From NCBI RefSeq assembly GCF_030013205.1, contig NZ_CP122648.1: a stretch of 64,000 nt of DNA. One strand, given 5' to 3'. Numbering within the stretch: position 1 is the first letter of the stretch; each line of letters opens with the position of its first letter. The DNA comes from Escherichia coli. Lineage in GTDB: Bacteria > Pseudomonadota > Gammaproteobacteria > Enterobacterales > Enterobacteriaceae. The notes below the pieces were generated by a model that saw only the letters and a list, made by a program, of their open reading frames with translations, ran no database searches and was not told the origin of the DNA. Below are positions 24,949 through 36,707 of this stretch, one piece after another. A program made the translations under genes and the position numbers.

Positions 24949-25398
24949 ATGAAGAAAGCAACACTTGTGATTGGCGTTATTGGCGCGGACTGCCATGCAG
25001 TAGGCAATAAAGTTCTGGACCGCGTTTTTAGCAACCATGGCTTCAGAGTCATTAATCTGGGCGTAATGGTCAGCCAGGACGAATATATTGATGCGGCCAT
25101 TGAAACTGGCGCTGACGCGATTGTCGTCTCCTCTATCTATGGGCATGGCGATATCGATTGTCTGGGCATGCGCGAACGCTGCATTGAGCGTGGGCTGGGT
25201 AACATCCTGCTCTATGTGGGCGGTAACCTGGTGGTCGGAAAACATGACTTCGCTGACGTGGAAACCAAGTTCAAAGAGATGGGATTTGATCGCGTCTTTT
25301 CCCCAAGTCATGACTTAGAAGATGTTTGTCAGCTGATGGCCCACGATATCAACCAACGTCATGACGTTGATACTCGCATTCTTGAAGAGGCAATCTGA
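24949..25398 (+). CDS. Glutamate mutase sigma (S) subunit, B12-binding (methylaspartate mutase small subunit)
   Basis: Start chosen at [21 protein letters not shown] (AAGGA RBS upstream); DxHxxG cobalamin-binding motif; aligns by eye with recalled Clostridium GlmS/MutS. Confidence 0.85.
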
Positions 25399-26786
25399 TG
25401 CAAATCGTCTCTGTCGATATTGGTTCGACGTGGACCAAAGCAGCCCTCTTCACCCGGGAGGGGGACGCGTTAACGTTGGTTAACCACGTTCTGACCCCAA
25501 CCACCACCCATCATCTGGCGAAGGGGTTTTTCTCCAGCCTGGACCAGGTGTTAAACGTAGATGATGCCCTCCCCCTGTTAAACAGTGGTGAGGTTGCATT
25601 GAAGTATTCCTCCTCTGCCAAAGGTGGGCTGGCGGTTGCCGCAATGGGATTGGTGCCTTCTATCACCCTGGAAACCGCGAAAGTAACCGCTCACTCTGCG
25701 GGTGCTAAAATTGCGCAATATTACGCCTACAAGCTGAACCGCCGTGATATCCAGGCACTGGAAGAAACGCAGCCCGATATTCTCTTGTTCACCGGCGGCA
25801 CCGATGGCGGAGAAGAAAGCTACGGACTGAATAACGCCCGTGTGTTGGCAGAATCCAAACTCGACTGCGCCATTATTTATGCCGGAAACCGGGATATTCA
25901 GGACGAGGTGCAGGAGGTCCTCGGGCATAAAGACCTGACCATCGTCGACAACGTTCTGCCCGATCTTGACCATCCGAACCCTTTAGCCGCACGCCAGGCT
26001 ATTTGCGACATATTCCTTAAACGCATCGTTAAAGGGAAAGGGCTGGATGTCATTGTTGATAAAACAGGCGAAGAACCAATGCCGACACCATGGACGGTCT
26101 TTGAACTGGTTAAGGCAATCAGTAACGTCGATCACAGCTGGAAAGAGTTCATGCTGATCGACATGGGCGGCGCAACCACCGATGTTTATTCCGCCTGTGC
26201 CAACACGCTCTCGCCCGACACCGTTCTACACGGCGTACCGGAACCCTTCGTGAAACGGACGGTGGAAGGCGATCTGGGAATGCGCGTCTCGGCAATGGTG
26301 GTTGGTGAAAGTGCGAAAGAGTTAGTCAATGTGAATTTTGCTCAGCAACCCGCACAGCTGGACGCTTTTTATCATTACCTCCGCCATCTAGTCGCTCATC
26401 CCGACTACTTACCCGCGAATGCAGAAGAAAAATATTTCGATACCGTCCTGGCCGGAGTGTGTGTGGGTTATGCCACCGAAAGACATGCGGGCACCAAAAA
26501 AGAGGTCTGCACCTGCGTCGGCAATGTCGATTTACAGATGGGACGTGATCTGACAACCGTGCGTAAAGTCGTGGGTTCCGGCGGATGGCTCTCGCGTGCC
26601 AGTCAGTTCGATATGCATCACTGGTTGAAATACCGCGAGTTAAACGACGACGGTAAACGCATTCTCTTACCGACCGAATTTGAATATTACCGCGATTCCC
26701 GGGGGCTATTACCACTGCTGGCAAACGTCGCCAGAGTCGATCCGCTGGCCGCCGCGCGCACCAGTATTCAATGCTTAACCCTATAA
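25398..26786 (+). CDS. Glutamate mutase-associated protein GlmL/MutL-like
   Basis: 462-aa ORF lying between the S and E subunit genes, the same order as in the clostridial operon; start overlaps the upstream stop. Confidence 0.7.
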   Translation: MQIVSVDIGSTWTKAALFTREGDALTLVNHVLTPTTTHHLAKGFFSSLDQVLNVDDALPLLNSGEVALKYSSSAKGGLAVAAMGLVPSITLETAKVTAHSAGAKIAQYYAYKLNRRDIQALEETQPDILLFTGGTDGGEESYGLNNARVLAESKLDCAIIYAGNRDIQDEVQEVLGHKDLTIVDNVLPDLDHPNPLAARQAICDIFLKRIVKGKGLDVIVDKTGEEPMPTPWTVFELVKAISNVDHSWKEFMLIDMGGATTDVYSACANTLSPDTVLHGVPEPFVKRTVEGDLGMRVSAMVVGESAKELVNVNFAQQPAQLDAFYHYLRHLVAHPDYLPANAEEKYFDTVLAGVCVGYATERHAGTKKEVCTCVGNVDLQMGRDLTTVRKVVGSGGWLSRASQFDMHHWLKYRELNDDGKRILLPTEFEYYRDSRGLLPLLANVARVDPLAAARTSIQCLTL

Positions 26787-26804
26787 CAATTAAGGCTGCA
26801 ATCA

Positions 26805-35165: not shown

Positions 35166-35768
35166 ATGGAAGCGCGAATTTCAACTGAACGGCATGTGCA
35201 GCGCCAGCAGAAATTGAAGGAACAGGTCGATACGCGCGTCGCGGCGGCGATAGAGAAAAAAGGGATTTTGATTGTTTTCACCGGCAATGGCAAAGGGAAA
35301 TCCACTGCCGCGTTTGGTACTGTGACGCGCGCGGTGGGTCATGGCAAAACGGTGGGGGTTGCGCAGTACATCAAGGGGCAATGGGACAACGGCGAATACA
35401 ACCTTCTCCAGCCGCTGGGGGTTGAGTTTCATATTATGGGAACCGGTTTTACCTGGGAGACACAGAACCGGCAAGCGGATATCGACGCGGCGAAAGAGGT
35501 CTGGTCGGAAAGCAAACGGATGCTGGCTGACAAGCGTTACGACTTAGTGGTGCTTGATGAGCTGACCTATATGCTGGCTTACCATTATCTGGACACCGAA
35601 GAAGTGATCGCTTCTCTGCAAAACCGCCCGGCACAACAAAGTGTCATTGTCACCGGACGCGGTTGCCACAGTCAGATATTAAAAATGGCGGATACGGTCA
35701 GCGAAATCCGCCCCGTCAAACATGCTTTTGATAACGGCATTCAGGCGCAGCCGGGTATCGACTGGTAA
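35166..35768 (+). CDS. Cob(I)yrinic acid a,c-diamide adenosyltransferase (BtuR/CobA-like paralog)
   Basis: 200-aa ORF with P-loop GNGKGKST; near-collinear with recalled E. coli BtuR (…VFTGNGKGKTTAAFG…). Confidence 0.85.
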   Translation: MEARISTERHVQRQQKLKEQVDTRVAAAIEKKGILIVFTGNGKGKSTAAFGTVTRAVGHGKTVGVAQYIKGQWDNGEYNLLQPLGVEFHIMGTGFTWETQNRQADIDAAKEVWSESKRMLADKRYDLVVLDELTYMLAYHYLDTEEVIASLQNRPAQQSVIVTGRGCHSQILKMADTVSEIRPVKHAFDNGIQAQPGIDW

Positions 35769-35801
35769 TAACTGCGCCTGGCATCCCGCCAGGCGCAGGT
35801 T

Positions 35802-36707
35802 TTACATCTCCTGCGGTACGACCGATTTCGCCAGCAACCATTCACGAAATTGCTGCAAGTGCGGCGAGTCAGACTTCTCTTCCTGCCACGTCATAATAAA
35901 ACGATTACCGGTACGAATAGGCACATCACAGGGAATCACCATATCGCCACTATCCAAATCATGTTGAATAGCGAACCGTGGTAACAGCGCCACGCCGAGA
36001 TTAGAGCGCACGGCGGCAATCAGCATTGAAAGCAAATCGAAACGTGGTCCGTTATTGACCAGCGGACTGCTAACGCCAGATAAAGCAAACCACTCTTCCC
36101 AGCCAGTAATACGGGTGCTTTGATGCAGAAGTGGTAACTCAGTAAGCAGTTCTGCCACTGACAGTTTTTGATCGGACATTGCAAGCAAACTGCCGCTGCA
36201 TACCGGCAAAATCTCCTCATCAAAGAGATATTCTACTTCCGCCCAGGGCGCGCAAAAATTTTCGCGCATAATGACAGCATCGTACTCCCGATTAAGAAAA
36301 TCGCCGTTATTAGCTAAAGAATGAATATTAACAATAATATCGGGATGTAACTTTGTGAATTCATGTAAATTTGGGATTAACCAGTGGGTACTAAAAGTAG
36401 GATTAACGGCAAGTTCAATAACCTGAACCGTAGGCTGCCAGGTCATAATGGTATTGGTATCGCGTTCCAGCTTATTTAATGTTTCTTTTACTATCCCCAG
36501 GTAATACTTCCCTGCATCATTAAGAAAAATACGTTTTTTAGAGTGTGAAAATAACGGAGTATGTAAAAATTCCTCCAGCGCACTCACTTGTCTGAATACA
36601 GCACTTTGGGTTAACGCTAACTCCTCTGCCGCTCTGGTATAACTTTCATGACGTGCGACGACCTCAAAAGTCACCAGCAGCTCCGTTTTAGGTATTTTTC
36701 CTCGCAT
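35802..36707 (-). CDS. LysR-family transcriptional regulator
   Basis: 301-aa ORF with N-terminal HTH (…SYTRAAEELALTQSAVFRQVSALEE…) and LysR substrate-binding domain. Confidence 0.85.
   Translation of the reverse strand: MRGKIPKTELLVTFEVVARHESYTRAAEELALTQSAVFRQVSALEEFLHTPLFSHSKKRIFLNDAGKYYLGIVKETLNKLERDTNTIMTWQPTVQVIELAVNPTFSTHWLIPNLHEFTKLHPDIIVNIHSLANNGDFLNREYDAVIMRENFCAPWAEVEYLFDEEILPVCSGSLLAMSDQKLSVAELLTELPLLHQSTRITGWEEWFALSGVSSPLVNNGPRFDLLSMLIAAVRSNLGVALLPRFAIQHDLDSGDMVIPCDVPIRTGNRFIMTWQEEKSDSPHLQQFREWLLAKSVVPQEM

Follow-up and report, generated by a model that had tools for sequence, protein, structure and literature searches.

The methylaspartate island of strain ETEC4079

The DNA considered here is a stretch of 64,000 nucleotides from Escherichia coli (64 kb, referred to as the window), which is 100% identical to the chromosome of strain ETEC4079, whose source was pig faeces. 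Between the cyd and suc operons it carries an accessory island with genes for the methylaspartate route of glutamate degradation. Within this island lies a pair of genes annotated as AtuA family (DUF1446) and DUF4387, which are read below as cmlA and cmlB, the predicted large and small subunits of a citramalate lyase that would carry out the last step of the route; in ETEC4079 an IS1 element interrupts the second gene. According to RefSeq, the gene order over the 64 kb is modE-gal-gpmA-aroG-...-tol/pal-cydABX, the island, and then sucDCBA-sdh-gltA-ybg fimbrial genes-...-phrB. Homology to E. coli K-12 MG1655 (blastn against MG1655 762500-773500) is lost at window position 22524 and regained at 37265, indicating that a 14.7-kb island replaces mngR-mngA-mngB. 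These displaced genes encode, in K-12, a mannosylglycerate phosphotransferase system and a mannosidase. Island genes are present in approximately 1,121-1,124 of 5,426 complete E. coli genomes (21%), at 95-100% identity.

The part of the island that is of concern here spans 24949-36707, from the annotated start of glmS to the start codon of a LysR-family gene. Genes were assigned by comparing NCBIfam profile scores, in bits, with the curated cut-offs (Table 1), and family models assign the mutase, its reactivase, the methylaspartase and the adenosyltransferase. The RefSeq annotation of the identical ETEC4079 genome agrees with the profile-based calls. The first six genes, in the order glmS-glmL-glmE-mal-cmlA-cmlB, are tightly packed, with intergenic gaps of -1, 18, -1, 3 and -4 nt; glmL overlaps the stop codon of glmS by 1 nt, as does mal that of glmE.

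Table 1. Features of the island in ETEC4079 (window positions; profile scores are from NCBIfam)
Feature	Position	Strand	Remarks
Accessory island, 14.7 kb	22525-37264		Between cydA upstream region and sdhX/sucD end; blastn against K-12 MG1655
glmS, glutamate (methylaspartate) mutase subunit S, B12-binding	24949-25398	+	NF002612, 252 bits (cut-off 110)
glmL, mutase accessory/reactivating protein	25398-26786	+	NF040745, 510 bits (cut-off 475)
glmE, glutamate mutase subunit E	26805-28250	+	TIGR01503, 863 bits (cut-off 390)
mal, 3-methylaspartate ammonia-lyase	28250-29491	+	TIGR01502, 542 bits (cut-off 286)
cmlA, predicted large subunit of a CmlAB-type citramalate lyase	29495-30865	+	Annotated AtuA family, DUF1446, PF07287; intact
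cmlB 5' fragment (DUF4387, predicted small subunit), codons 1-48	30862-31006	+	ATGA start overlaps cmlA stop
Target-site duplication, 8 bp, left copy	30999-31006		ACTGATTG
IS1 element, 768 bp, within cmlB	31007-31774	+	Terminal repeats at both ends; IS1 transposase NF033558
Target-site duplication, 8 bp, right copy	31775-31782		ACTGATTG
cmlB 3' fragment, residues ~47-105	31776-31955	+	
Perfect hairpin, 15-16 bp	32037-32070	+	In 160-nt gap between cmlB and transporter gene
Dicarboxylate/amino acid:cation symporter (DAACS) family, presumed glutamate importer	32116-33396	+	
fumD, class I fumarase acting as mesaconase	33504-35156	+	NF011921, 1282 bits (cut-off 1060)
cobO/cobA-type cob(I)alamin adenosyltransferase	35166-35768	+	NF004637, 296 bits (cut-off 185); TIGR00708, 247 bits (cut-off 168)
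GC-rich hairpin between convergent cobO and LysR genes	35772-35798		11-pair stem, 9 GC pairs
LysR-family regulator, GcvA-like, presumed island regulator	35802-36707	-	NF008352, 222 bits (under cut-off of 288)

Predicted citramalate lyase genes and the IS1 insertion

The cmlA product matches chains A of PDB entries 9ERQ and 9EVF (9erq_A/9evf_A) over its full length (E = 4e-290), with 417 of 456 residues identical (91.4%), and the depositors have named these chains "Citramalate lyase, subunit A (cmlA)". For the DUF4387 protein the intact version of a sister strain, K_EC180, was used; it matches 9erq_B, named "Citramalate lyase, subunit B (cmlB)", with E = 5e-57. The PDB A chain is in turn 100% identical to the cmlA product of a Klebsiella michiganensis locus (L010) in which the genes are ordered as in the window. 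The entry 9ERQ (released 2025-10-22) is a complex with AMPPNP and citramalate, and 9EVF (released 2025-10-08) is entitled "Citramalate lyase - ADP - pyruvate complex". When the window CmlA is modelled with AlphaFold (pLDDT 84.9), the model superposes on 9EVF with a TM score of 0.93, and a Foldseek search of the PDB with this model (E < 0.001) returned no further relatives beyond the citramalate lyase entries. The Cml enzyme of Raoultella planticola has been used in vivo, where E. coli grew on mesaconate in a Cml-dependent manner and acetyl-CoA carbon was labelled; its products are given simply as pyruvate and acetate (bioRxiv 10.64898/2026.01.16.699985).

From the 91% identity and the identical synteny we infer that cmlAB of this island type encodes a citramalate lyase, so that the last step of the route would be present in cis. 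The cleavage of (S)-citramalate to pyruvate and acetate by CmlAB is suggested by the PDB molecule names, the bound ligands and the in vivo use of the Raoultella enzyme. An earlier note on this DNA, made from the letters and their open reading frames (ORFs), had listed candidates for the first three steps, a transporter and a BtuR-like adenosyltransferase, all of which are borne out by the NCBIfam scores of six genes and by RefSeq. It had also stated that no citramalate lyase-type gene occurs in the segment, which is contradicted by the match of cmlA and cmlB to 9ERQ/9EVF, and that the pathway is incomplete in cis, which would be wrong for the island as a type given a lyase encoded by cmlAB. 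Among the three options that it had offered for the last step, the third, that the DUF1446-like pair performs it, is the one favoured by the match to the CmlA and CmlB structures.

The constancy of this gene arrangement was examined in 80 loci with CmlA relatives of 57-91% identity, taking one genome per species; counts of features include only loci with enough flanking sequence. The loci come from Enterobacterales, Betaproteobacteria, Riflebacteria, Aminicenantes/Acidobacteriota, Spirochaetes, Lentisphaerae, Chloroflexi, Firmicutes, Desulfobacteria, Myxococcota and Planctomycetes. Wherever it could be scored, cmlB lies directly 3' of cmlA (77/77), and mal lies directly 5' of cmlA in 65 of 72 loci. 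Fifty-five of 63 loci contain both glmS and glmE, and a class I fumarase gene is found within 10 kb of cmlAB in 27 of 43. The same operon core was seen in three metagenomic contigs or contigs of metagenome-assembled genomes that were examined separately, and in Prevotella intermedia mal has been reported to adjoin AtuA-family genes (PMC10434189). The DUF4387 family comprises approximately 1,160 clusters at 50% identity, and most of its members are stand-alone proteins of about 100-115 residues. In some cases the DUF4387 domain is fused to the C-terminus of a CmlA-like protein to give a single chain of about 600 residues. P0227 and P0258 are examples, with 37-40% identity to CmlA over residues 3-442. 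Such chains argue for the two parts acting as a single enzyme.

In ETEC4079 the reading frame of cmlB, which is 105 residues long when intact, runs to ...TPELI and then into IS1, where it stops after one further codon. The remainder was located by tblastn with intact CmlB (59 residues, 100% identical, 31776-31952), and RefSeq treats the two halves as pseudogene fragments, one lacking the C-terminus and the other the N-terminus. Excision in silico of IS1 together with one 8-bp repeat restores the exact sequence of K_EC180, whose island is otherwise identical. The flanks of the insertion are 100% identical in the sister strains K_EC180, ETEC1748, ETEC4067 and ETEC4069, which lack this insertion. 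Approximately 21 places in the ETEC4079 genome match IS1. The IS1/cmlB junction occurs in only one of the 5,426 complete E. coli genomes, and cmlB is uninterrupted in 1,118 of them, meaning that one aligned piece covers at least 80% of the gene; the insertion is therefore recent and strain-specific.

Since cmlB is split by IS1, the window locus is a disrupted member of the CmlAB type. The last step is thus genetically damaged in ETEC4079 by the IS1 element in cmlB and not for the reason given in the earlier note, from which the split of the DUF4387 gene at 31007-31774 is missing. The constant pairing of cmlA with cmlB, and the fusions of the two, suggest that the insertion abolishes the lyase. 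As a natural cmlB::IS1 mutant with near-identical sister strains in which the gene is intact, ETEC4079 provides a ready comparison.

The same cluster was described in E. coli O157:H7 and other Enterobacteriaceae by Kronen & Berg (PLoS One 2015; PMC4682846), who named and assayed FumD, gave labels to the transporter, to CobA and to the LysR-type regulator, and noted that citramalate lyase genes were absent, concluding that "the fate of (S)-citramalate ... is still unclear". At that time no function had been assigned to the DUF1446 gene found downstream of mal, and it was often mislabelled as methylaspartase (PMC4682846). This study was the one relevant paper that a literature search on DUF1446 returned. 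All genes of that cluster are shared with the window (glmS, mutL/glmL, glmE, mal, the DUF1446 gene, the gltP-like gene, fumD, cobA and the LysR-type gene); the differences are that the DUF1446 protein has now been named a lyase, in the PDB and in the 2026 preprint, and that the window strain has an extra IS1. The elements of this finding are therefore already known, the puzzle from the 2015 paper, the structures from PDB releases of October 2025 and the use of the enzyme from a preprint of 2026. With the CmlAB of 9ERQ/9EVF the window pair shares 91.4% of CmlA over 456 residues, the fold and the operon context; it differs in being the predicted E. coli orthologue, with a cmlB cut by IS1.

Current annotation conceals the enzyme. 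PF07287 is assigned to every close homologue of the cmlA product (99-60% identity), for which the RefSeq name is AtuA family, and three homologue records (P0003, P0060 and P0073) are mislabelled '3-methylaspartate ammonia-lyase'. NCBIfam has no model for either Cml subunit. Automated pathway reconstruction will keep calling the route incomplete because the lyase is hidden behind the names 'AtuA family', 'DUF4387' and, in some records, 'methylaspartate ammonia-lyase'. The correction to be made is that AtuA family and DUF4387 genes beside mal be annotated as citramalate lyase CmlAB. The founding member of PF07287 is AtuA of Pseudomonas, which belongs to the same Pfam family as CmlA and is set apart from it here by context (atu as opposed to glm/mal genes) and not by sequence comparison. 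We know of no established reaction for Pseudomonas AtuA, which has been proposed to be 3-hydroxy-3-isohexenylglutaryl-CoA lyase, an enzyme that releases acetate.

The proposed route and its alternatives

We consider it very likely that the island encodes the full methylaspartate route by design, with CmlAB as its last step, and that the route is disabled by IS1 in ETEC4079. Glutamate would be taken up through the DAACS symporter and turned into 3-methylaspartate by GlmS/GlmE, a mutase that GlmL would keep active and to which CobO would supply adenosylcobalamin, presumably from salvaged corrinoid. Mal would then strip ammonia from 3-methylaspartate to give mesaconate, and FumD would hydrate mesaconate to (S)-citramalate, as has been shown for the O157:H7 orthologue. 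Finally, CmlAB would cleave (S)-citramalate to pyruvate and acetate without acyl-carrier-protein machinery; this has been shown for an orthologue of the Klebsiella/Raoultella group, and is extended to E. coli through the identity and synteny noted above. The LysR protein would control the island. In ETEC4079, any flux would end at citramalate or mesaconate.

Such a route leads from glutamate to pyruvate and acetate in a B12-dependent manner, and its last enzyme is unrelated to the classical citrate and citramalate lyases. The island is found in roughly one in five complete E. coli genomes, in species of Citrobacter, Klebsiella, Raoultella, Salmonella, Yersinia, Hafnia and Morganella, and also in several anaerobic phyla. 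In the methylaspartate cycle of haloarchaea, mesaconate is activated to mesaconyl-CoA, and no genes for a CoA-transferase or mesaconyl-CoA hydratase are annotated in the island by RefSeq. The likeness between the two lies in the formation of mesaconate by glutamate mutase and methylaspartase (PMC4682846).

Several points weigh against the proposed route. The function of CmlAB in E. coli is transferred from an orthologue and not taken from an E. coli enzyme, and a literature search found no primary description of 9ERQ or 9EVF, so that the function comes from the depositors' names, the entry titles and one preprint. Inactivation by IS1 is itself a prediction, and CmlA alone, without CmlB, could retain activity. 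The nucleotide bound by CmlAB may be consumed as ATP or be an effector only. In addition, O157:H7 neither grew on glutamate nor had methylaspartase activity under any condition, with or without cobalamins, and no condition for expression of the island was found in that strain (PMC4682846).

These last results also speak for an island that is cryptic in E. coli or serves another purpose, such as the making or use of mesaconate or citramalate, detoxification, or activity only under host-specific conditions, in which case fermentation of glutamate to pyruvate would not be its working function there. Expression, growth and methylaspartase activity were all negative under the conditions tested (PMC4682846). 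It also counts for this view that E. coli is not known to synthesise B12 de novo and depends on salvage. Furthermore, FumD is a good fumarase too, with kcat/Km values of 2e6 for mesaconate and 7.5e5 for fumarate, mesaconate being preferred 2- to 3-fold (PMC4682846). The product of the window fumD falls below the NCBIfam cut-offs for FumA and FumB, and since the gene is 98.6% identical in nucleotide sequence to fumD of O157:H7, the plain fumarase that the earlier note had allowed for does not apply. Against a cryptic island are its genes, which are intact and 95-100% identical across approximately 1,120 E. coli genomes, and the fact that it carries its own transporter and adenosyltransferase. 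The conservation of the operon core across many phyla argues for selection on the whole route, and we regard a cryptic or differently employed island as improbable.

A second alternative is that the island does lack its last step, and that citramalate is cleaved elsewhere, either by a citrate lyase encoded by citCDEFXG or by a promiscuous isocitrate or methylisocitrate lyase. The citramalate lyases of clostridia are CitDEF homologues (PMC4682846), and homologues of CitC/D/E/F/X/G are absent from the 64-kb window when it is searched with the genome's own Cit proteins (tblastn, E <= 1e-6; the best chance match at E <= 1 has E = 0.007 over 64 residues). Nor does RefSeq annotate a cit gene anywhere in the window, so the statement in the earlier note that CitDEF-type citrate or citramalate lyase genes are missing from the segment holds. 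The genome-wide search that was proposed there leads to the only cit operon of this genome, citCDEFXG-citT, approximately 100 kb beyond the island (record positions 3,615,370-3,622,108). This operon, however, is unlikely to supply the activity, as extracts of O157:H7 with 0.48 U/mg citrate lyase had less than 1 mU/mg citramalate lyase, and the same was true of extracts with 0.79 U/mg isocitrate lyase or with an induced methylcitrate pathway (PMC4682846). The other two options of the earlier note, an enzyme encoded elsewhere or a promiscuous one, are disfavoured by the same measurements. Moreover, candidate genes for a dedicated lyase lie within the operon, and no homologue of CitC/D/E/F/X/G was found within 10 kb of cmlAB in any of the 80 loci. 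Cleavage by an enzyme encoded outside the island is thus highly unlikely.

Compared with the CitDEF lyase of Clostridium tetanomorphum, CmlAB is predicted to catalyse the same overall reaction and to act at the same place, directly after mesaconase. It differs in having two subunits as opposed to three, no prosthetic-group genes, and a nucleotide in the solved complexes; the tblastn search was negative, and structures of CitE and CitF are absent among the listed fold matches.

That the pair is instead an acyclic terpene utilization protein with no link to the glutamate genes, or a second methylaspartase, as the RefSeq and Pfam name AtuA family and the '3-methylaspartate ammonia-lyase' label of some homologue records might suggest, has next to no probability, given that the AtuA name is a family transfer and not an assay, that the methylaspartase label on the DUF1446 gene has been flagged as unfounded (PMC4682846), that the true mal with its equivalog-level score lies upstream, that RefSeq annotates no atu or liu genes in the window, and that the solved structures hold citramalate and pyruvate as ligands.

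If CmlAB is the lyase, its mechanism may be unusual. The complexes with AMPPNP and citramalate and with ADP and pyruvate indicate that an adenine nucleotide binds CmlAB together with substrate or product. Were ATP consumed, one sensible reading would be that the C4 carboxylate is activated as an acyl phosphate, replacing the thioester of CitDEF. A more far-reaching version, which we think rather doubtful, is that CmlAB-type enzymes convert citramalate with an ATP-activated C4 carboxylate to pyruvate and acetyl phosphate, that such chemistry possibly extends across the AtuA/DUF4387 family (including the step that releases acetate in acyclic terpene catabolism), and that the P-loop protein described below is an accessory to it. 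As a probe of the acetyl phosphate idea, linkage to acetate kinase or phosphotransacetylase genes was examined and found in 1 of the 80 loci; this sparse linkage is uninformative because ack and pta are housekeeping genes.

Neighbouring genes, regulation and flanking sequence

Outside the Enterobacterales, a P-loop protein of about 313 residues with the Walker A motif GAEGAGKST is usually encoded directly 3' of cmlB. Examples are L007:11677-12618, L008:11712-12665 and L005:11698-12654, and the protein is also found in 43 of the 80 loci L009-L088; when only loci with enough downstream sequence are considered, it is present in 34 of 64. Neither E. coli nor the loci of other Enterobacterales contain it. 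Searches of Pfam, NCBIfam and PADLOC gave only weak matches at the level of the Walker A motif, and thus no named family. The protein may assist the lyase or the mutase as an accessory factor.

In seven loci cmlAB is found without mal directly upstream, namely in Accumulibacter (L037), Shewanella (L066, L078 and L082), Desulfospira (L072), L074 and L087. The mal gene of L074 lies approximately 3 kb further upstream, and that of L087 is downstream of cmlAB, with glmS, glmL and glmE upstream; in the other five no mal was found within 10 kb. The Shewanella cmlAB is isolated, with hrpA on one side and a protease gene on the other, and neither this context nor that in Accumulibacter gives a functional lead. 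In such genomes citramalate or mesaconate may come from another source, or the enzyme may have another substrate.

Among the NCBIfam models the DAACS symporter matches DctA (314 bits) and GltP (304 bits) best; since both scores are under the respective cut-offs, the protein represents a distinct subfamily. The transporter of the island was labelled GltP in Fig. 5 of the 2015 study (PMC4682846). Between cmlB and the transporter gene, the hairpin at 32037-32070 has an RNA folding energy of -26.9 kcal/mol (z = -4.4 relative to shuffled sequences), and could be a terminator or attenuator that parts two transcription units. Given this hairpin, the transporter, fumD and cobO genes may form a transcript separate from the IS1-hit cmlB, and thereby escape polarity of the insertion.

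The LysR gene is kept at the same position in enterobacterial loci, and its orientation is convergent, not divergent, with respect to the genes that are presumably under its control. The GC-rich hairpin in the gap that separates it from cobO is probably a bidirectional terminator shared by the two genes. Scans for promoters and terminators were otherwise at about chance level, this hairpin being the sole one to stand out, and Rfam (gathering thresholds, 22000-37600) gave zero matches. The sdhX small RNA beside sucD is retained, as judged by homology (~37270-37370, minus strand), with no gathering-level Rfam match.

Two ORFs of low GC content (37-38%, compared with 50% for the window) precede glmS at the island's left end, at 22954-23898 (314 residues) and 23979-24401 (140 residues). 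Neither could be placed in a family by NCBIfam or PADLOC, nor could the 314-residue ORF by Pfam. Two further genes of the window are disrupted. The fimbrial usher gene ybgQ (~49961-52420) is a pseudogene with an internal stop according to RefSeq, and ybfD (~63180-63947) is annotated as a truncated ISAs1 transposase remnant; both represent ordinary decay that is unrelated to the lyase finding.

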